Part shown: piece by piece, positions 44,672 through 61,790 of the stretch | How the letters are laid out: each line of letters opens with the position of its first letter | How positions within the stretch are numbered: position 1 is the stretch's first letter | Notes under the pieces: model-generated | Told to the model about the DNA's origin: nothing | The model's input: only the letters and a program-made list of their open reading frames with translations | Database searches by the model: none | Translations under genes and position numbers: made by a program | Virus record (IMG/VR): IMGVR_UViG_3300025896_000021 | Length of the DNA: 64,000 bases | Reading direction: 5' to 3' (one strand) | Source of the DNA: a virus | Taxonomy: Duplodnaviria; Heunggongvirae; Uroviricota; Caudoviricetes

Positions 44672-46240
44672 ATGGCAAAACCCCCTACACCTATTAGTAA
44701 CGCCCCGACGTTGGTCAAGAACCCGTACATTAAGACGCAATTCAGAAACGAAACAGAATTAAACGACTTCATTAAATGTTGTGATCCTGAAACGGGTTAT
44801 CTATATTTTATGGATAACTTCTTTATGATTCAGCACCCGACTAAGGGTAGCATGGTCTATCACCCTTGGGATTATCAAAGACGATTGATAGAAACATATC
44901 ACAAGTATCGTTATTCAATCTCATTGATGCCACGACAGTCAGGTAAGTCAACGTCAGCAGCAGGATACTTGCTTTGGTACGCTATGTTCGTACCCGACTC
45001 AACGATATTAATTGCAGCACACAAGTACACAGGTGCTCAAGAAATTATGCAGCGTATTCGTTATGCATACGAGAACTGTCCTGATCACATTAAAGCAGGG
45101 GTAACTACATACAACAAAGGCTCATTAGACTTTGAAAATGGATCACGTATTGTTTCAGCAACTACTACTGAAAATACAGGTCGTGGTATGTCTATCACAC
45201 TTCTATACTTAGATGAGTTCGCATTCGTGCGTCCCTCAATTGCAAAAGAGTTCTGGACTGCTATCACTCCTACATTGTCAACCGGTGGTAAAGCTATTAT
45301 CACTAGCACACCTAACTCAGACGAAGATCAATTTGCGTTCATTTGGAAGGGTGCTAATAAGTGTGAAGACGAATACGGCAATCCTACTGAATTGGGCGTT
45401 AACGGATTCAAGTCATATAGAGCATATTGGCCAGAGCAACCCGGCCGGGATGAACAGTGGGCCAAAGAAATGCAAGCTCAATTGGGAGAAGATCGTTTTA
45501 GGCGAGAAATTGGATGTGAGTTCATTATTGCTGATGAAACACTTATCAATCCAAGTACTCTTATTGATTTAGCAGGCATTGAGCCTATTCACCGTATTGG
45601 ACAGATTCGCTGGTATAAGCGGCCTACTAAAGGCAGTGTATACGCCGTCAGTCTTGATCCATCATTGGGTACAGGTAGTGATCCTGCTGCAATTCAGATA
45701 TTCGAAGCAAACACTACTACGCAAGTTGGTGAGTGGAAGCACAATAAGACAGATATTCCTAGTCAGATCAAGTTACTAGCACAAATTACTAAGTACATTT
45801 CAGATTGTACCGGTGAACCAAACAGCATCTACTATTCAATAGAGAACAACAGCATTGGTGAAGCTGCATTAGTGTCATTGAATGAGTATGGTGAAAGCAA
45901 TATTCAGGGAATTTTCATTAGTGAGCCCGGAAAAAAGCGCAAAGGGTTCACTACAACTAATAAGAGCAAACTTGCAGCTTGTGCTAAATTTAAAACATTA
46001 GTTGAAAACAAGAAACTGACAATTCATAGTCATAGTTTGATTACTGAGTTAAAGTCATTCATTGCTAATGCGGGTAGCTACGCTGCTAAGATAGGAGAAA
46101 CTGACGATTTAGTTATGGCCTCTTTACTTGCAATCAGGGTTATCCAACAATTGAGTGAATATCATAGCGGATTGGACAGTCATATGCGTGACCATGAAGA
46201 ATTCATAGCTCCATTACCCTTCTTTGCGGTACTGGGTTAA
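44672..46240 (+). CDS. Terminase large subunit (gp17-like)
   Basis: PRQSGKS Walker A, YLDEFAF, TSTPN, E-x-N-x-x-G, DDLVMA. Confidence 0.95.
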   Translation: MAKPPTPISNAPTLVKNPYIKTQFRNETELNDFIKCCDPETGYLYFMDNFFMIQHPTKGSMVYHPWDYQRRLIETYHKYRYSISLMPRQSGKSTSAAGYLLWYAMFVPDSTILIAAHKYTGAQEIMQRIRYAYENCPDHIKAGVTTYNKGSLDFENGSRIVSATTTENTGRGMSITLLYLDEFAFVRPSIAKEFWTAITPTLSTGGKAIITSTPNSDEDQFAFIWKGANKCEDEYGNPTELGVNGFKSYRAYWPEQPGRDEQWAKEMQAQLGEDRFRREIGCEFIIADETLINPSTLIDLAGIEPIHRIGQIRWYKRPTKGSVYAVSLDPSLGTGSDPAAIQIFEANTTTQVGEWKHNKTDIPSQIKLLAQITKYISDCTGEPNSIYYSIENNSIGEAALVSLNEYGESNIQGIFISEPGKKRKGFTTTNKSKLAACAKFKTLVENKKLTIHSHSLITELKSFIANAGSYAAKIGETDDLVMASLLAIRVIQQLSEYHSGLDSHMRDHEEFIAPLPFFAVLG

Positions 46241-49376: not shown

Positions 49377-49613
49377 ATGACAATGCCAGACGAAAGATAC
49401 CGTGCTATCAAGCAAGGTAAAAAGTTATTGGAAGAACTATGTGATCCTGGTAAAACACCTAGAGTCCCTAGTATAGTTCGTGACCGAGCAAGGGGTGCAT
49501 TACGTCACTATCCTAACGATTGGGAGTTAGATGCAATGGCAGAAAAATGTCCCGATCTGCTTGATAAGCAGCCGTTTAGTATATACAATACACGGAACAC
49601 ATCAATTAAATGA
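49377..49613 (+). CDS. Small hypothetical protein (BPSL0761-like)
   Basis: MTMPDER...TPRVP...LRHYP. Confidence 0.65.
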   Translation: MTMPDERYRAIKQGKKLLEELCDPGKTPRVPSIVRDRARGALRHYPNDWELDAMAEKCPDLLDKQPFSIYNTRNTSIK

Positions 49614-49626
49614 AAGAGAGAATGTA

Positions 49627-50703
49627 ATGGCAAAACCTTTTGACGTTTCAAAATTTAGAAAAGAAATTACTAAGTCTATTGAAGGACTTAGTATCGGATA
49701 TAACGACCCAACTGATTGGGTCAGTACAGGGAATTATGGACTTAATTATCTTATCAGTGGTGATTTTAACAAAGGCGTGCCTCTTGGCAAAGTCACTGTA
49801 TTCGCTGGAGAATCTGGTTCGGGCAAGTCTTTCATTTGCTCAGGCAACTTGGTCCGACATGCGCAACAGCAAGGTATTTACGTTGTTTTAATTGACAGTG
49901 AAAATGCACTTGATGAAAAATGGTTGCATGACTTGGGTGTAGACACAAGTGAAACCAAATTGCTTAAGTTGAACATGGCTATGATTGACGATGTAGCAAA
50001 GACTATCAGTGAGTTTATGAAGTCATACAAAGTCTTGCCAGAAACAGACAAGCCTAAAGTATTGTTCATCATTGACAGCCTTGGAATGCTATTGACTCCA
50101 ACTGATGTGAATCAGTTTGAAGATGGTAACATGAAAGGTGACATGGGTCGTAAGCCTAAAGCACTGACAAGTCTTGTTCGTAATTGCGTGAACATGTTTG
50201 GTAGCCACAATGTTGGTCTAGTCGCAACTAATCACACATATGCATCACAAGATATGTTTGATCCAGATGACAAAATCTCTGGTGGTCAAGGCTTTGTGTA
50301 CGCAAGTTCTATCGTAGTCGCTATGAAGAAGTTGAAACTGAAAGAAGATGAAGACGGTAACAAAGTTGCAGAAGTAAACGGCATTCGTGCTGCTTGCAAG
50401 ATTATGAAAACTCGTTACGCTAAGCCTTTTGAAAGTATTCAAGTTAAGATTCCATACGAAACAGGTATGAGCCCCTACAGTGGTCTAACTGATATGCTTG
50501 AGAAATCAGGCGCATTGAAAAAAGAAGGCAATAGCTTAGTGTATGTAACCGAACACGGTGAGATTCTCAAAGCATTCCGTAAGGGTTGGGAAGCTAACAA
50601 AGACGGTTGCTTGGATAAAGTTATGCTAGAGTATACTGGTGCTACTAAGAGTAAAGTGAGTGCTGCAACTGCTGAGGCAGATGTAGAAGAGGTAGCAGAA
50701 TGA
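49627..50703 (+). CDS. uvsX: UvsX/RecA-like recombinase
   Basis: GESGSGKS, IDSE, IIDSLG, TNHTY, SGG. Confidence 0.93.
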   Translation: MAKPFDVSKFRKEITKSIEGLSIGYNDPTDWVSTGNYGLNYLISGDFNKGVPLGKVTVFAGESGSGKSFICSGNLVRHAQQQGIYVVLIDSENALDEKWLHDLGVDTSETKLLKLNMAMIDDVAKTISEFMKSYKVLPETDKPKVLFIIDSLGMLLTPTDVNQFEDGNMKGDMGRKPKALTSLVRNCVNMFGSHNVGLVATNHTYASQDMFDPDDKISGGQGFVYASSIVVAMKKLKLKEDEDGNKVAEVNGIRAACKIMKTRYAKPFESIQVKIPYETGMSPYSGLTDMLEKSGALKKEGNSLVYVTEHGEILKAFRKGWEANKDGCLDKVMLEYTGATKSKVSAATAEADVEEVAE

Positions 50704-53847: not shown

Positions 53848-54924
53848 ATGATGACAAAAAAGCCTAACACTAAAGAACAATTAGTTGATTACTTGCTAAA
53901 ATACATAAGTTTGGGCACTTACGATAAAAAGTTTGTTAGCAATATATTGCAACTTAACATTACTACTGGTAAATCTGTTACCACTAATCAAGCAGCCCTG
54001 TTAGATAAAATCATTCTGCGATATCATCGGCAACTAGCTAAAGCAGAAATAAATAGCATTGACATGGTTAACCTTTCGTGGTCACTGCCACCGATTGAAA
54101 GTTCACCTATCTATACTGAGGCACATGTGTCTGTTATGGATGATACCACGCTCATTATTCATAGTCCCTACAAAAAGGATTTTGTAAAGGAACTTAAGCA
54201 ATATGATTACATGAACTGGGACCGCGACAATAAATTATGGTCCACTATAGCATCGGAGCACACACTAAAGCAAGTGTTGGAAGTTGTTAATGCTCACTAT
54301 GATAAAGTAAATTACTGTCCTATAGTACAGCAAGTAGTAGACACTGTGACAGAATACGAAGGTATGCTATACTGGAATCCAACACTAACTCGAATAAAAG
54401 GTAATCTGTACGTAGTTGCTGCAAATGGTCCACTGATGGAAGCGATTACTAATATTCCTTTGGATACTGATTATCACACATTAGCTAGACTAAGCAGAAT
54501 GGGAATCAGAATTGAGCCGGCACTTATTAGTGCAGTACATGATGAGTTGGGCGGGTCTGACGAAGTGTTTAAGAAACTGATATTTGCAATTGACCATCAA
54601 CCCAAGATTGAAATGTCTAACCAATCTATGATCATAGAACATCTGTTAGATATCAAAGCAGATATCGTGATACTCAACCAGTGGTTTGGTACAAACAAAA
54701 CTTATGTTATGGAATTAGCTAATTTATTGAAAGCAAATAAAATCGAACATAAGATATTAAAAACTAAATCAGGTCTCGGTGAAGTAGTTGACACTGAGTT
54801 AAAGACATATGACATGCCCATAAAACTTAACATAGGAGTGTTCAATACGCACGGATCACTTAAACATATAGCCAAGAATGTACAATTGGTAAACAGCAAC
54901 GAAATCTATATAGAGTATAAATGA
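53848..54924 (+). CDS. Hypothetical protein
   Basis: ORF directly after TTGCAT-N17-TATAAT. Confidence 0.7.
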   Translation: MMTKKPNTKEQLVDYLLKYISLGTYDKKFVSNILQLNITTGKSVTTNQAALLDKIILRYHRQLAKAEINSIDMVNLSWSLPPIESSPIYTEAHVSVMDDTTLIIHSPYKKDFVKELKQYDYMNWDRDNKLWSTIASEHTLKQVLEVVNAHYDKVNYCPIVQQVVDTVTEYEGMLYWNPTLTRIKGNLYVVAANGPLMEAITNIPLDTDYHTLARLSRMGIRIEPALISAVHDELGGSDEVFKKLIFAIDHQPKIEMSNQSMIIEHLLDIKADIVILNQWFGTNKTYVMELANLLKANKIEHKILKTKSGLGEVVDTELKTYDMPIKLNIGVFNTHGSLKHIAKNVQLVNSNEIYIEYK

Positions 54925-56399
54925 AACAATGTAAAATAATCGTCAAAGACGAAGTAAACGTAAAGATAGAGGGCTTGGATCTACCTGATCGTAAGGCTCT
55001 AATGAAACTATTTGAGTTTGATGTACCCGGCGCACGGTATTTGCCAAGTGTCCGACTCGGTAGGTGGAACGGCAAGACTAGCTACTTTAGTCTAGGTGGG
55101 TCAAGTTATATCAACTTGCTTCCCGAGATTCTTCCTGTACTTGAACGTGTCGGTTACGACATTGAGTTAGAAGACACACGGGACTATACAACTACCTTTG
55201 CGTTTACTGAGGTTACTGAGGAAACATTCAAACATAAAGTATGGCCTAAGAATCATCCTATTGCGGGACAACCAATTGTACTGCGTGACTATCAGATTGA
55301 GATTATCAACAACTATCTTAAGAATCCGCAAGCACTGCAAGAAATTGCAACGGGTGCTGGCAAGACACTAATCACTGCTGCACTTAGTTCTGCTATTGAG
55401 CAGTATGGTCGTAGTATTGTTATCGTGCCTAACGTTAGTCTAGTAGGTCAAACCGAAGCTGATTATATTAACTTGGGGCTTGATGTTGGTGTGTACTACG
55501 GCGGCCGCAAAGAGTACAACAAGACGCATACTATTTGCACTTGGCAGTCACTAGGTAACATGCTTAAGAACACTAAAGCAGGAGAAGCAGAAGTTGACAT
55601 TGGCGACTTCTTAGAAGGCGTAGTTTGTGTTATCGTTGACGAGGTTCACCAAGCTAAAGCAGAAGTATTGAAGACATTGCTCACTGGGGCAATGAGTCAG
55701 ATTCCATTACGTTGGGGCTTGACTGGTACTATCCCTAAAGCTAGATTTGAATCAATGTCGTTGACTGTTAGTTTAGGCCCAGTGATTGGTAGTCTAACTG
55801 CTAGTACATTACAAGAGCAAGGTGTGTTGAGTAACTGCCATGTTAACATCCTACAACTACAAGATGGAGTTGAGTTCCCTAACTATCAAACTGAATTAAA
55901 GTACCTAGTTGAGAACAGTCAGCGTATGGATTGTATTGCTTCACGTATCTTTAAGATTAAGGATACAGGTAACACATTGGTCCTTGTTGATAGGATTGAA
56001 GCTGGTAAAATACTACATCTTAAGTTAGAAGAATTAGGTGTACCCGAAGCTGACGTAGTGTTCGTGTCGGGTGGCACTAAGTCTACTACTAGGACTGATC
56101 ATTACGATGACATTGCTACAGCAACTAACAAGATTATTATCGCAACATACGGTGTAGCCGCAGTTGGTATTAATATCCCGCGTATCTTCAACGTAGTGTT
56201 GATTGAACCGGGTAAGAGTTTCGTTCGAGTTATTCAAAGTATCGGACGAGGCATACGTAAAGCAGAAGACAAAGACTTTGTGAATATCTGGGATATCACT
56301 AGTAGTTGTAAGTTCGCTAAACGACATTTGACCCAACGGAAGACATTCTATCGTGATGCCAACTACCCGTTTGACGTTGAAAAAATTAAGTATAAGTGA
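54921..56399 (+). CDS. uvsW: UvsW-like SF2 helicase
   Basis: LRDYQ, ATGAGKT, DEVH, GLTGT, QSIGRGIR. Confidence 0.9.
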   Translation: MKQCKIIVKDEVNVKIEGLDLPDRKALMKLFEFDVPGARYLPSVRLGRWNGKTSYFSLGGSSYINLLPEILPVLERVGYDIELEDTRDYTTTFAFTEVTEETFKHKVWPKNHPIAGQPIVLRDYQIEIINNYLKNPQALQEIATGAGKTLITAALSSAIEQYGRSIVIVPNVSLVGQTEADYINLGLDVGVYYGGRKEYNKTHTICTWQSLGNMLKNTKAGEAEVDIGDFLEGVVCVIVDEVHQAKAEVLKTLLTGAMSQIPLRWGLTGTIPKARFESMSLTVSLGPVIGSLTASTLQEQGVLSNCHVNILQLQDGVEFPNYQTELKYLVENSQRMDCIASRIFKIKDTGNTLVLVDRIEAGKILHLKLEELGVPEADVVFVSGGTKSTTRTDHYDDIATATNKIIIATYGVAAVGINIPRIFNVVLIEPGKSFVRVIQSIGRGIRKAEDKDFVNIWDITSSCKFAKRHLTQRKTFYRDANYPFDVEKIKYK

Positions 56400-57511: not shown

Positions 57512-58190
57512 GCCAAAGCATACCTGTGAGTTTTGTCATCGTGAATTTGTGCGAGAACGAACATTAATCAGTCATCTATGTGAACAGAAGCAAAGATGGC
57601 TGAACAAAGATATCAAAGGTAACCGACTAGGCTTTCAGTGTTGGTTGCAGTTCTATACCAAGAACAGCATGAACCGAACTAAGAATAAGACCTATGAAGA
57701 ATTTATTAAGTCTGCATACTACACTGCCTTTGTAAAGTTTGGTACTTATTGTGGTGAAGTCAATGTAGTCAATGTAAGCCGCTTTGTTGATTGGTTACTC
57801 AAAGAAAATATCAAGCTAGACAACTGGCATAGTGATTCAGTTTATACTACCTTCTTGCAGGATTACCTTCGCAAAGAGGATCCGTTTGATGCGATACATC
57901 GTGGCATTGAGCATTCTATAGTATTAGCCAAAGCAGCAAACATTCAGTCACACGACATATTACGATTTGGGAATGTGAACAAAATCTGCTATGCCATAAC
58001 AACGGGCAAGATAAGTCCATGGATGTTGTATCAGAGCAACAGTGGTACCCATTTTCTAGATACTTTAAATCCAGACCATGTTAAAATGATCATAGAGTAC
58101 ATAGACCCGGAACAGTGGGCAATCAAATTTAAACGAGATCCTGAAGTTGCTAAACAAATCAAAGAGTTATTGGGGGCGGGAGGATATTAA
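57486..58190 (+). CDS. Hypothetical protein with N-terminal zinc finger
   Basis: CEFC...HLC; start uncertain. Confidence 0.65.
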   Translation: MKKIVATVEPKHTCEFCHREFVRERTLISHLCEQKQRWLNKDIKGNRLGFQCWLQFYTKNSMNRTKNKTYEEFIKSAYYTAFVKFGTYCGEVNVVNVSRFVDWLLKENIKLDNWHSDSVYTTFLQDYLRKEDPFDAIHRGIEHSIVLAKAANIQSHDILRFGNVNKICYAITTGKISPWMLYQSNSGTHFLDTLNPDHVKMIIEYIDPEQWAIKFKRDPEVAKQIKELLGAGGY

Positions 58191-58365
58191 GCATATAGCA
58201 GAGATTCCTTATACTAGAGTGCAACAGCATGAGGTGTTTGAATGGTTGCTAGTCAATTTAGGATTGCCCGGACACGATTATTATGTCAGACATGATTCTA
58301 CTACGTTAGCAGTACATTTTACAACAGAACAAAATTACATTTGGTTTATATTGAGGTGGTCGTAA
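58147..58365 (+). CDS. LRW-family small protein 1
   Basis: Ends FTTEQNYIWFILRWS; start uncertain. Confidence 0.6.
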   Translation: MLNKSKSYWGREDIKHIAEIPYTRVQQHEVFEWLLVNLGLPGHDYYVRHDSTTLAVHFTTEQNYIWFILRWS

Positions 58366-58658
58366 TGAACGAAAAAATGATTCACGAATTTGTACAACGC
58401 TACGGAGCCAGGGTAGATTACCAACATGGTCGTAGCAGCTTTGAAACCTATAGCAGGTCAATGAATTATTACGATGACCGTAAAAGTGTAGTAGATATTG
58501 AACTATCCAGGCAAGAATTTGAGCATTTAGTTGAAGCAGATCACCATGCAGAAGTTGACTATCGTGTTAGAAGCGAAGAAGCACGCCTGCGCAGTAAATA
58601 CCCTGCGTTGGAAACAGCATATAGCAAATACAAAATGTTATTGGAGCTATACAAATGA
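58365..58658 (+). CDS. Small hypothetical protein (YPAL-x-x-AY-x-x-YKML type)
   Basis: TAATG overlap; GAGGTG RBS. Confidence 0.75.
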   Translation: MNEKMIHEFVQRYGARVDYQHGRSSFETYSRSMNYYDDRKSVVDIELSRQEFEHLVEADHHAEVDYRVRSEEARLRSKYPALETAYSKYKMLLELYK

Positions 58659-59014
58659 ACGATCTGCTACCTTATCAACACGCACTATATGATAAACTGC
58701 AAGCAGGTGGATTTAAGCAAGGAGAACTAGTTGTCTTTGCCGCTGGTCGTCAAACCGGCAAGAGTATGCTCTATAAGACTATGCTTAATGAAATGTATGG
58801 ATCAATGACGAAACAACCTATTTTCTCGGTAAATGGCAAAGCAGAAGTAGATGGTGCAACTTGGTATACTGTACACTGCAATAGAGATATCAGTACATGG
58901 TTGCGTAATCAACCTAAAGAGTGGCATTATGAAGCATTAGCACACGGATGGAGTGGTTGTCAATTTGACATTCACGAAAAACTTTACACAATGTTGATAT
59001 TGCGATGGAGCTAA
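58655..59014 (+). CDS. LRW-family protein with N-terminal Walker A fragment
   Basis: LLPYQ...GGFKQGELVVFAAGRQTGKS; ends MLILRWS. Confidence 0.75.
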   Translation: MNDLLPYQHALYDKLQAGGFKQGELVVFAAGRQTGKSMLYKTMLNEMYGSMTKQPIFSVNGKAEVDGATWYTVHCNRDISTWLRNQPKEWHYEALAHGWSGCQFDIHEKLYTMLILRWS

Positions 59015-59253
59015 AACTAAGTGAAGGCAGAGTCTCGGGGTCACGATACTATACAGTTGATCCTAACCCAAATTGGGATCCTTATTGGTACAATCAAGGT
59101 TGGTTTGATATGGAAATTTGGTGTCTGACGCAATTTGGTCCAACTCCGAATGATGGTGTGTGGACACCCGGTGCTCGTTGGTATATGAACAATAGAAAAT
59201 TTTGGTTCCATAATGAAGCAGACTTATCTTGGTTTATATTGAGGTGGTCATGA
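59005..59253 (+). CDS. LRW-family small protein
   Basis: WCLTQFGP...FHNEADLSWFILRWS. Confidence 0.8.
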   Translation: MELKLSEGRVSGSRYYTVDPNPNWDPYWYNQGWFDMEIWCLTQFGPTPNDGVWTPGARWYMNNRKFWFHNEADLSWFILRWS

Positions 59254-59483
59254 GTAATACAGCAAGCTGGACAACATTCGGCAAGGATCGTTATCATCTC
59301 AACGGTGAGATGGAACGCTGGTGCCTAGACAATGTTGGGAATGGTGGTTGGACTTATAGTACTCCCGAAACTTGGGAAGGTATGGGTGGCAAAGTTTGGA
59401 TTATGCACAGCATGTTTGGTAACACTACCTTTGTATTTAAAGAGTCCAAACACTTAGCTTGGTTTATGTTGAGGTGGGAATGA
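59250..59483 (+). CDS. LRW-family small protein
   Basis: WCLDNVG...FKESKHLAWFMLRWE. Confidence 0.8.
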   Translation: MSNTASWTTFGKDRYHLNGEMERWCLDNVGNGGWTYSTPETWEGMGGKVWIMHSMFGNTTFVFKESKHLAWFMLRWE

Positions 59484-59698
59484 GTTCACTTGTAAGAATA
59501 AAAAACAAGAATGCAATAGCAGCAATGGATATAGTAAGAGAGTTGCGTGAGAAGGGGTATGTACAGGGAATTGATTTTGATTTTAATTACTATCATCAAG
59601 AATCCGATGATCCACAGGACATCACCGAGCAGAGACATACCTTATTCACTTTTTACAAAGAGGGGCTGGCAACATGGTTCAGTTTAAAGTACCTATGA
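59480..59698 (+). CDS. LRW-family small protein (LKY variant)
   Basis: FYKEGLATWFSLKYL. Confidence 0.75.
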   Translation: MSSLVRIKNKNAIAAMDIVRELREKGYVQGIDFDFNYYHQESDDPQDITEQRHTLFTFYKEGLATWFSLKYL

Positions 59699-59952
59699 CA
59701 TTAGAAGATGAGTTGGCGGCGACGGCGGGTAAGATCATGGCAGATGAAATTGACTGGGAAATTTTAGCTAACCTATTAGTTCAATCAGGCTGGTTTATGG
59801 TAGACTTAGATCATTACAGAGACCGTTACCAAAGTATTGACATTGAAACATGGATTGATGAAAACTGCAAGGGCAAATACAAGAAACACAGTAGAACATT
59901 CGTGTTTGAGAAGAAAGAAGATGCAGCTTGGTTTAAGTTAAGGTGGCTATGA
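59695..59952 (+). CDS. LRW-family protein with N-terminal gp23-like helix
   Basis: EDELAATAGKIMADEIDWEIL; ends FEKKEDAAWFKLRWL. Confidence 0.75.
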   Translation: MTLEDELAATAGKIMADEIDWEILANLLVQSGWFMVDLDHYRDRYQSIDIETWIDENCKGKYKKHSRTFVFEKKEDAAWFKLRWL

Positions 59953-60158
59953 GAGTATTGAAGAAAGAACTGTGGCCTTGCAAGGTAGAACTGGATCTAG
60001 ATCAAAGTCAGACCAAGTTGATAGAAATAGAAACTTGGCTAGGCGAACATTATGGTCCTTTAAAGAATCGCTGGAATGTGGTTTATCAATGGGACCATAC
60101 TGTATTTTATTTTCGGCAAGGCACTGATGCTACCATGTTTTCATTGAGGTGGGTATGA
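59949..60158 (+). CDS. LRW-family small protein
   Basis: WLGEHYG...FRQGTDATMFSLRWV. Confidence 0.78.
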   Translation: MRVLKKELWPCKVELDLDQSQTKLIEIETWLGEHYGPLKNRWNVVYQWDHTVFYFRQGTDATMFSLRWV

Positions 60159-60547
60159 TAGAATATATTAAAGACAAGTATTTGACTTGGCGTACTGGTG
60201 TTGATAAACAAACACGTGATCATCGTAAGTGGTATGATGAAACTGTTGTTCAACGTGCTAGTACGATTGAAAATATGTTTATGAACTTCAAGTACATACT
60301 GCCAGTATCTACGAATATATTTGATTTTTCTGAGCCGTTTGGTTGGTACCCCAACAAAGAATTTAGACAGTATATGTGGCCTAACCGAAAGTTAGATGAC
60401 TGTTCCGTGTATTACTTTGCCCGTGGCTATAGAGATAAGTGGGATGGTAAATTTTATATGAATGACTTGCGGCACGACGAAGACCAAGTGTTTGTAGCAA
60501 CTAACAATGAGGTAGATGCTATGATGATAACATTGAAATATTCATGA
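60155..60547 (+). CDS. LRW-family protein (LKY variant)
   Basis: NNEVDAMMITLKYS. Confidence 0.72.
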   Translation: MIEYIKDKYLTWRTGVDKQTRDHRKWYDETVVQRASTIENMFMNFKYILPVSTNIFDFSEPFGWYPNKEFRQYMWPNRKLDDCSVYYFARGYRDKWDGKFYMNDLRHDEDQVFVATNNEVDAMMITLKYS

Positions 60548-60888
60548 CAATAAGCAATTCCACAATTAATATGATTCGTAAGCAATTGCCAATTCTACTG
60601 GCAAAAGCTATTACAGGCGTGCAACCTATGACAGGCCCGGTTGGGGGACTCTTTAGAATGAAATATACCTATACTCCACAATCAAAGTATAAATTTACCC
60701 GTGCCAACTGGTATGTGGCAGAGTTCAACATTAAAGATTATACTGATGTTGTACATTGGTGTAGGGAACAGTTTGGTCCACATCCTCGTAATCCCGATGC
60801 TTGGAGTCGTTGGGAACACAAGTATGAAGATAAGATTTACTTCCGTGATGAGAAAGATTATGCTTGGTTCATGTTGAGGTGGTCGTGA
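60544..60888 (+). CDS. LRW-family protein with N-terminal major-capsid (Gol-like) fragment
   Basis: MIRKQLPILLAKAITGVQPMTGPVG; ends FRDEKDYAWFMLRWS. Confidence 0.8.
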   Translation: MTISNSTINMIRKQLPILLAKAITGVQPMTGPVGGLFRMKYTYTPQSKYKFTRANWYVAEFNIKDYTDVVHWCREQFGPHPRNPDAWSRWEHKYEDKIYFRDEKDYAWFMLRWS

Positions 60889-61136
60889 GAAAATTAATTC
60901 CAAATAATATAACTGTAACTGAACAGTTTCGTATCCGTACTCAGTTTGTTGGTATGGTTGGAAAATGGAAACAAAGTATTCTTACTACCACCAGCAAGAA
61001 ATATCTAGAGTTAGAGTTACAGTGGTTGGAGCGGGACAGCGGTGTTCGCTGTCATTATACTAACAATGGTGAATTGGTAGGATTTAAGTTAGTTGATGAA
61101 AAAATGTATGCTTGGTTTGTGCTGAGGTGGGCATAA
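60885..61136 (+). CDS. LRW-family small protein
   Basis: GTGA overlap; DEKMYAWFVLRWA. Confidence 0.75.
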   Translation: MRKLIPNNITVTEQFRIRTQFVGMVGKWKQSILTTTSKKYLELELQWLERDSGVRCHYTNNGELVGFKLVDEKMYAWFVLRWA

Positions 61137-61141
61137 GTAAC

Positions 61142-61396
61142 ATGACTATTAAATTTACTAGTACAGAGTGGGTAGGTGCTGAACCAGAAAACACTGACAT
61201 TGTGTTAAGATCAGAAGCAGGGTTAACTGGGAAGTTTACGGATTTTTCTAATGAAGTTTTTCTATGGTGCTTTGATAATGGCATTGAAGCAGATATGGTT
61301 GGTAAAAAATATAATAGTGATGACAATAGTGATTATAGTCTATGGAGAATTGAAAATGAACAGCACAGAACTTGGTTTATATTGAGGTGGGCATGA
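61142..61396 (+). CDS. LRW-family small protein
   Basis: WCFDNG...ENEQHRTWFILRWA. Confidence 0.78.
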   Translation: MTIKFTSTEWVGAEPENTDIVLRSEAGLTGKFTDFSNEVFLWCFDNGIEADMVGKKYNSDDNSDYSLWRIENEQHRTWFILRWA

Positions 61397-61605
61397 TCAA
61401 AAGACAATATAACAGATGGCGCTACGGCGACAATAAATCTTACTTTGATAACTTTGTTGATGCACATGGACCAGATGAAGTCATTGAAGATAAATTATTA
61501 TTCTATAAAGCAACTATAGGTAAAAGTAAGAATAAAAATCACAAACTAAATGTCAAGTGGCATGATCCAAAAATGTATGTGGTGTTTGTATTGAGGTGGG
61601 CATGA
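61393..61605 (+). CDS. LRW-family small protein
   Basis: DPKMYVVFVLRWA. Confidence 0.75.
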   Translation: MIKRQYNRWRYGDNKSYFDNFVDAHGPDEVIEDKLLFYKATIGKSKNKNHKLNVKWHDPKMYVVFVLRWA

Positions 61606-61790
61606 AATTACTGGAAGACTACTCAGTATCATTGAGCGCAGACAGATGGATCAAAATAAAAGAACAATTAACAAAAGTTGAATCTAATTCATTGGTGTCT
61701 ATTACTTGGACAGGTCCGTTTGAAAGAACCAGAATATTACGATTTAAATCTGAGAATGATGCATTGATATTTGTATTGAGGTGGTCGTGA
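61602..61790 (+). CDS. LRW-family small protein
   Basis: FKSENDALIFVLRWS. Confidence 0.75.
   Translation: MKLLEDYSVSLSADRWIKIKEQLTKVESNSLVSITWTGPFERTRILRFKSENDALIFVLRWS

Follow-up and report, generated by a model that had tools for sequence, protein, structure and literature searches.

The protein encoded at 58655-59014 of the window (the whole stretch of 64,000 nucleotides of phage DNA that was analysed) is, as judged from alignments and profile comparisons, built of two modules, i.e. an orphan start of an SF4-type helicase ATPase domain (residues ~3-48) and a divergent LRW domain (residues 57-119). The best explanation for the N-terminal module, hereafter the cassette, is that it is a putative phosphate- or nucleotide-binding arm on an accessory protein, a reading that draws on conservation and on analogy with designed polypeptides, and to which a probability of about 0.38 can be given. 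By its profile matches and domain content the protein is neither a terminase fragment nor a complete NTPase. A first-pass annotation, made from the DNA letters alone, had described an isolated Walker A segment, with the rest of the ATPase absent, fused to an LRW-type domain, and had proposed that it is a non-catalytic mimic of a sensed ATPase motif; the observation is confirmed by the ORF, its translation and the protein family, whereas the interpretation is supported in part only. The features of the gene are as follows.

58655..59014, plus strand: coding sequence, with its stop codon, of the 119-aa P-loop/LRW protein (ORF list, sequence, homologue clusters)
58661..58798, plus strand: N-terminal cassette, residues 3-48, assigned to the opening part of an SF4 helicase ATPase (HMM, hhalign, tblastn, purifying selection)
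58673..58678, plus strand: Y7-Q8, earlier read as a terminase 'YQ' motif; aligns with PYQ of a gp4-type primase-helicase
58742..58765, plus strand: Walker A loop A30-G-R-Q-T-G-K-S37, which fits [AG]x4GK[ST]
58769..58822, plus strand: variable linker, residues 39-56, pN/pS ~0.9 and near-neutral, with a breakpoint near 58804
58823..59011, plus strand: C-terminal LRW-type α/β domain, residues 57-119, of the VDGxTWY...W...Q...FDIHEKLY...LRWS subfamily (AlphaFold2 pLDDT 94-96)

The gene starts with an ATG at 58655 that shares bases with the TGA stop of the preceding ORF (ATGA), and GGAG is found 9 nt upstream of this ATG; the stop codon is at 59012-59014. Within the 119-aa protein LLPYQ occupies residues 4-8 and GGFKQGELVVFAAGRQTGKS residues 18-37, and the C terminus ends in LILRWS (MLILRWS). 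The ORF is a genuine gene, a chance reading being excluded by its relatives: homologues form 52 clusters at 90% identity and 395 metagenomic representative clusters (50% identity) at E<=1e-3, 180 of these at <=1e-10, with lengths of 65-143 aa, and in 96 diverse members, which are 27-76% identical to the window protein and in which conservation was counted, G35, K36 and S37 are invariant (96/96). One relative, P0001, is 99% identical. The 105-aa ORF directly upstream (58341-58658, plus strand), the C terminus of which reads LLELYK, is translationally coupled to the gene via the ATGA; it has no LRW motif and no Pfam or PHROG matches, and its position is occupied by a different gene in the syntenic contig L001.

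The P-loop/LRW family is real, conserved, abundant and previously undescribed. The window protein has no Pfam match above threshold and no PHROG match, and neither tblastn of the whole protein nor megablast of its LRW array gave any match in 50,697 phage genomes. Fused or longer forms were searched for among relatives of 210-2000 aa and none was found, and residues 1-48 used as the sole query returned the same family only, the cassette not being seen on other C-domains. The gene contexts in relatives are always LRW-gene arrays on T4-like contigs, cyanophage-like ones included. The genes of such arrays end in ..WF.LRW[SAE], and similar arrays are present in almost all of the related loci compared. 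In the window the array and the other genes relevant here are located as follows.

58147..61790, plus strand: tandem array of 13 LRW-type small genes, mostly overlapping, the 58655-59014 gene included (motif and HMM scans)
44672-46240: large terminase, PRQSGKS
49531-50703: RecA/UvsX-type protein
54921-56399: UvsW-type helicase

The cassette very probably derives from an SF4 helicase, as several kinds of sequence comparison indicate. A family HMM of residues 1-47, run against ~1,500 ORFs from six-frame translations of the window and of related loci, matched the gp41-like helicase of syntenic L001 (18032-19456) with E=2.2e-6, as against E=13 for the window terminase, with UvsX not listed; the outcome of a 128-sequence profile search was the same. 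In hhalign comparisons the gp41 alignment gave 95.6% (P 1.1e-8) and the gp41 single sequence 94.7% (P 5.8e-8), compared with 78% (P 1.8e-5) for the terminase alignment, 66% (P 5.6e-5) for the UvsX single sequence included as a control, 47.5% (P 1.9e-4) for the terminase single sequence, 24% and 8.5% (P 8.5e-4 and 4e-3) for AAA proteins, and 0.4% (P 0.13) for UvsW. This ranking was unchanged for a family subset without obvious GGF..GE, the terminase alignment standing at 75-78% across both runs. The HMM and gp41 values bear out the earlier suggestion that the GGF-x-x-GEL-x-x-FA stretch is helicase-like, and the cassette does match one of the two families to which it had been compared, namely the SF4 helicases.

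Pfam scans of 28 and of 96 members returned only sub-threshold matches, all within the RecA superfamily (KaiC, DnaB_C, AAA_25), with no terminase families among those listed, and the sub-threshold NCBIfam matches were to replicative helicase, FlaH and KaiC. The window protein itself scores 13.8 bits with Pfam DnaB_C, for which the cut-off is 27, at profile positions 13-57 of 255; sub-threshold DnaB_C matches were obtained for 8 of the 96 members. When residues 1-49 were compared with all phage genomes by permissive tblastn, 52 of the 60 weak matches lay in primase/helicase or DnaB genes, the helicase-gene matches spanning at least 12 phage lineages, and none lay in terminase genes. The top match, to the primase-helicase (gp13) of Pelagibacter phage HTVC041P, has 19/46 residues identical (41%) without large gaps, 'PYQ' included, and identity to the gp41 helicase of the phage's own clade is 48% over 27 aa. 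From the HMM, hhalign and tblastn results and the HTVC041P alignment, it follows that the whole ~45-residue segment is colinear with the SF4 ATPase start; by alignment to the SF4 domain it comprises helix α0, strand β1, Walker A and the start of α1, and SF4 motif H1 is present in its context, ..D..l.GG...GeL.i..g....GK[ST]. The N terminus has no match among the ORFs of the window, the helicase lying outside it; gp41-type helicases were found in syntenic L001 and in two other contigs. A role as DNA-level recombination bait for gp41 is ruled out by the extent of the likeness, which is only ~48% amino-acid identity over 27 codons.

Compared with the H1 region of SF4 enzymes (T4 gp41, T7 gp4 and DnaB; Pfam DnaB_C, in a clan with KaiC/RadA/FlaH), the cassette is thus alike in 33-46 colinear residues, '..D..l.GGf..GEL.i.a.G...GKS..', and in the order of its elements, i.e. 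helix, strand, P-loop, helix. It differs in that it corresponds to the first ~45 of ~250 ATPase residues, with no N-terminal or primase domain, and in that its P-loop has R-Q where the helicases have small residues. The SF4 motifs H1a, H2 (Walker B), H3 and H4 and the arginine finger are absent, the linker and the LRW-type domain following after residue ~48. A Walker B motif (hhhhD/E) was looked for in the 119-aa protein and none was found; the acidic residues D66, D105 and E108 are part of the C-domain and are conserved to an equal degree in 68 relatives without a P-loop.

By contrast, the likeness to large terminases of the T4 gp17 type (TerL) is, by these comparisons, limited to two motifs, [YW]Q and xRQxGK[ST]. 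The window terminase reads WDYQ...PRQSGKS, and in the family [YW]Q, which is present in 64/96 members, lies 20-25 residues before R-Q-x-G-K-S, a spacing as in the window's terminase, with a cis arginine in the P-loop in both cases. The first-pass annotation was therefore correct that YQ plus RQ[ST]GKS mirrors motifs of the window terminase, but the profile similarity is only at the level of the UvsX control (47-78% for terminase and 66% for UvsX, against 95-96% for gp41). Alignment of the cassette with the terminase by hhalign requires a 5-residue insertion, GGFKx, and neither the Walker B and C-motif of TerL nor its C-terminal nuclease domain is present in the 119-aa protein, residues 57-119 of which are of the LRW type. 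With no terminase family from Pfam and none of the 60 tblastn matches in terminase genes, the terminase half of the earlier comparison is not sustained.

AlphaFold2 models built with 96 sequences predict a confidently folded C-domain of β-β-α-β-β-α order (E57-65, E68-75, H77-84, E91-94, E102-107, H108-118). In the N-terminal region of the models helices 6-16 and 38-48 flank a loop, residues 21-50 have a pLDDT of 51-64, and neither β1 nor any sheet including the P-loop segment is formed, as was also the case in a run with a shallower alignment. Since the models give a confident fold to the C-domain and none to the P-loop segment, the protein does not amount to a complete small NTPase. Such an NTPase, or a match to neither family, was what the first-pass annotation had named as contrary to its reading, and neither outcome was observed. 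The idea of a split NTPase completed by a neighbouring gene was rejected; the neighbouring ORFs, of LRW or helical type, differ from phage to phage. Prediction of a homodimer in complex with ATP and Mg gave a score of 0.00, which is evidence in neither direction.

The C-domain shares several traits of the LRW family, including the C-terminal LRWS, the topology of a β-β-α-β-β core plus a helix, and location in the array, and its sequence is weakly similar to those of the remaining LRW paralogues (E=0.021 with a leave-one-out HMM; 60% and P 8.7e-5 with hhalign). Its conserved residues are D66, W70, W82, Q86, D105, H107 and E108, whether or not a P-loop is present; the polar ones among them (D66, Q86, D105, H107, E108) could form a metal or ligand site of the domain's own. 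Foldseek of the C-domain against the PDB gave nothing at E<=1e-3. With VIA-align the best match was a baseplate chain of phage Pa193 (Z 5.8, rmsd 5.5), followed by the T4 UvsW N-domain (Z 4.8) and an APSES/MBP1 domain (Z 4.0), all of which fall in a range that is common according to the tool, and ESM Atlas returned viral hypothetical clusters only. A GW/SH3 likeness, suggested by weak matches to residues 42-86, is at odds with the predicted α/β fold and was set aside.

The conservation of the cassette is centred on the phosphate-binding loop. Besides the invariant GKS, the residues kept among the 96 members are R32 (91), G19 (84), G23 (80), E24 (78), G31 (77) and Q8 (68), with Q33 as the majority residue at its position; Y7-Q8 is missing from variants of the MKAIYDIE type. 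In a codon analysis of residues 13-38, pS is 0.5-0.7, i.e. near saturation, and pN is 0.06-0.26 (for the cassette segment of the window compared with L003, pS 0.59 and pN 0.06). The segment is, by these codon values, under purifying selection. The H1 region of the clade's helicase is identical in three phages (GGSGSGKS), while the cassettes vary, with R-Q at the loop, and co-variation of cassette and cognate helicase was not seen in these three phages, in which identical H1 regions accompany differing cassettes. Since R32 is near-invariant, yet absent from the phage's own helicase, the cassette does not track its supposed original.

The cassette is nevertheless optional. About one third of the relatives compared (68/200) are without any P-loop, and they keep VDGxTWY, W82, Q86 and FDIHEKLY at the same frequency, from which it follows that the cassette is dispensable for whatever the C-domain does. 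Pairs of loci illustrate how it is exchanged. In two IMG/VR phages, the gene at 9986-10315 of L016 (with the P-loop) and that at 8439-8702 of L024 (without) have flanks of 90-93% identical DNA, between which a ~120-nt N-terminal coding stretch is replaced, such that L016 carries the helicase-like GGFRPGEVIVYAGGFGVGKS N terminus, and L024 an unrelated short N terminus, on the same C-domain. Between the window and L001 identical columns number 74/151 before 58804 and 195/211 after it, the two having different P-loop variants on nearly the same C-domain; a comparison of L003 with L005 shows the converse pattern. As judged from such pairs, the cassette is swapped or removed by recombination between near-identical flanks.

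Modular shuffling of this general type is known from the hyperplastic regions of T4-type phages, where ORFan cassettes are moved by a PeSL-mediated process (PMC2839356, PMC4122927). The similarities are that the genes concerned are small and early, that they occupy a variable block flanked by core genes, and that close relatives exchange them by recombination at short conserved junctions. The present case differs in that the cuts lie inside the gene, so that an N-terminal sub-gene module is swapped, and in that the repeated junction is coding (LRW codons), rather than a promoter-stem-loop.

In the preferred reading the cassette would be a minimal phosphate-binding arm, for an NTP, polyphosphate or a nucleic-acid backbone, and not a dead mimic. 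The invariance of GKS, together with the acquired cis arginine (R32), points to phospho-ligand binding. Binding by a lone α-β-(P-loop)-α element is plausible, because oligomers of designed 40-residue β-(P-loop)-α and N-α-β-α polypeptides are able to bind NTPs, polyphosphate and ssDNA (10.1101/2020.07.30.228619). The cassette resembles these prototypes (Vyas et al., 10.1101/2020.07.30.228619) in being an isolated α-β-(Walker A)-α element of ~40 residues with none of the rest of the NTPase fold, and the order of elements in the AlphaFold2 model (helix-loop-helix flanking) is the same. The designs of Vyas et al., however, are laboratory constructs, whereas the cassette of the 119-aa protein is natural, selected and fused to an unrelated folded domain, its ligand binding being only putative.

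Ligand binding would probably require oligomerisation of the protein or its docking to a partner, and the arm may allow the LRW-type domain to grip or switch in response to the ligand. A role in phage DNA replication/recombination, or in takeover of the host, would be the likely context. Several points tell against such an arm, including the lack of a Walker B motif or catalytic Glu, the pLDDT of 51-64 at residues 21-50 with no β1, and the dispensability of the cassette. The neutral pI of the protein (7.8; family median 6.9) gives no hint of nucleic-acid binding, and the turnover in presence and absence of the cassette would fit an arms-race role, as a decoy, equally well. Should the cassette bind a phospho-ligand, the single β-(P-loop)-α prototypes, so far known only as designs, would have an equivalent in nature, kept by selection in hundreds of phage lineages, and what a lone Walker A element can do by itself would become tractable to test.

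Second in rank is the proposal that, by resembling H1 of a RecA-type/SF4 helicase ATPase or the corresponding region of the terminase, the cassette titrates or blocks a host sensor or another factor that reads this region, with the LRW domain as a stable carrier; by analogy with known triggers this is conceivable, though unlikely. The first-pass annotation took it as established that Avs sensors recognise terminase ATPase features, which agrees with the literature: terminase ATPase domains are sensed by Avs1-3 and Upx and the RecA-type ATPase domains of phage primase-helicases by Avs20, and SeAvs3 reads active-site residues together with bound ATP (PMC13581612, PMC13601566). A decoy would also be in keeping with a gene in a fast-turnover accessory array, the cassette of which is gained, lost and swapped, with a segment that is unfolded alone in the models, as a partner-dependent element may be, and with the neighbouring LRW gene at 60544-60888, which carries the most conserved gp23 segment, the Lit/Gol trigger region in T4 (PMC3014915). 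However, what the published Avs sensors recognise is the shape of a whole folded domain, contacted over an extended interface (PMC13581612, PMC13601566), and a ~45-residue piece left unfolded by AlphaFold2 cannot present an interface of this kind. The near-invariant R32 (with Q33 in the majority) contrasts with the near-invariant GGSGSGKS of the phage's own helicase H1, strict invariance of GKS is more usual for ligand binding than for mimicry, and, given that most core phage proteins are now known triggers, descent from one of them is uninformative. The phosphate-binding arm is ranked above the decoy because the sensors read whole folded domains and because it is in the loop itself that cassette and helicase have diverged. 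Lower ranks go to a helicase poison and to a structural remnant.

The LRW gene at 60544-60888 (plus strand) encodes a 114-aa protein. Its residues 6-51 match T4-type major capsid proteins in the N-terminal part where these are most conserved: E is 1.5e-9 with Pfam Gp23, and genuine capsid genes of 750 phages are matched too, with 36-53% identity among the matches listed. No sequenced phage has an LRW domain. In T4, the Gol region is described in a review as the most conserved part of gp23 and as the trigger of Lit (PMC3014915). The two LRW proteins are alike in having, within the same array, a short conserved piece of a core protein N-terminal to the LRW domain. They differ in that the form with the gp23 piece occurs, among the related loci compared, only in the window and in L001 (11544-11894), whereas the P-loop form is widespread; the coincidence with the Gol residues is putative. 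No captured fragments were detected in the other array members, and a 'second gp23 segment' at 59695-59952, proposed in an earlier reading, has no Pfam or PHROG support. A generalisation, in which the LRW domain is a carrier displaying core-protein pieces (SF4 H1 in one case, Gol-type gp23 at 60544-60888 in the other) as decoys or competitors, with the cassettes swapped intragenically, seems rather improbable.

If the cassette is bait, it would represent a new counter-defence principle, i.e. the display of conserved fragments of core proteins. Whether arm or bait, an undescribed and abundant family is defined (395 clusters), and the swapping of sub-gene modules is documented for the accessory region that a large clade of jumbo T4-like phages, all uncultured, has in its genomes.

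It has also to be considered that the cassette may insert in, or cap, an SF4 ring, be it that of host DnaB, of a co-infecting gp41 or of the phage's own gp41 during loading, and so act as a dominant-negative element or an assembly factor. The best sequence match, which is to H1 of the clade's own gp41-type helicase, and the location of the gene among replication and recombination genes, with those for UvsX and UvsW upstream and, in syntenic L001, that for gp41 ~8 kb downstream, are compatible with such a role, which is nonetheless highly doubtful. In the RecA fold β1 and the P-loop belong to the buried core and are not an interface, so that once a helicase has folded there is no vacant place for them to enter; the cassette does not include the linker helix by which SF4 ring contacts are made, homology beginning at the TGF..LD-type position; and close relatives dispense with the cassette.

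Similarly improbable is the view that the captured fragment is structural only, e.g. as a linker or oligomerisation element, or a neutral remnant, with a Walker A sequence that has no ligand role. The segment is optional and has no fold in the models, and the T4-type hyperplastic regions do shuffle and create ORFan cassettes (PMC2839356, PMC4122927), all of which would suit a remnant. A decaying relic would, however, lose its motif, and a pure linker would behave as residues 39-56 do (pN/pS ~0.9), whereas in the segment pN is low beside a pS near saturation and GKS has been kept throughout 96 sequences as little as 27% identical to the window protein.

The least probable alternative, namely that the cassette is the Q-motif and Walker A of a large terminase, interfering with or mimicking packaging ATPases, has in its favour the shared motif spacing, R32 in 91/96 members, the 75-78% with the terminase alignment and an ESM Atlas feature search in which the nearest named clusters were short terminase N-terminal pieces (0.86-0.87, below the tool's own bar and rated by it as a lead only), but is opposed by the better match to gp41 (by ~3 orders of magnitude in P-value), by terminase scores like those of UvsX, by the lack of terminases from the Pfam scans and the 60 tblastn matches, and by the alignment of PYQ and the full 46-residue stretch to a primase-helicase without large gaps.

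Some further features of the array and of the clade may be mentioned. The sequence TTGAGGTGG, which includes the codons for L-R-W, has 8 exact copies at 58351-61784 (plus strand), all within the array and nowhere else in the 64 kb; it also reads as a GAGGTGG Shine-Dalgarno sequence before the next ATG. The 58655-59014 gene encodes LRW as TTG CGA TGG, implying that the LRW motif is kept at the protein level too. A promoter and terminator scan of the 56-64 kb region gave counts at chance level.

The clade is abundant, in that at least ~600 IMG/VR viral contigs have a gp41-type helicase or a terminase related to that of this phage; the best 80 of each (L030-L189) are 77-86% identical, on contigs of up to 525 kb. 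The nearest terminases from sequenced phages, those of Sinorhizobium phage Phosso and Pseudomonas phage PA5oct, are 48-51% identical. In the cyanophage-like contigs L005 (13961-15933) and L006 (14160-18750), LRW arrays that include the P-loop form adjoin genes for HSP20, ClpS, heme oxygenase and bilin reductase.
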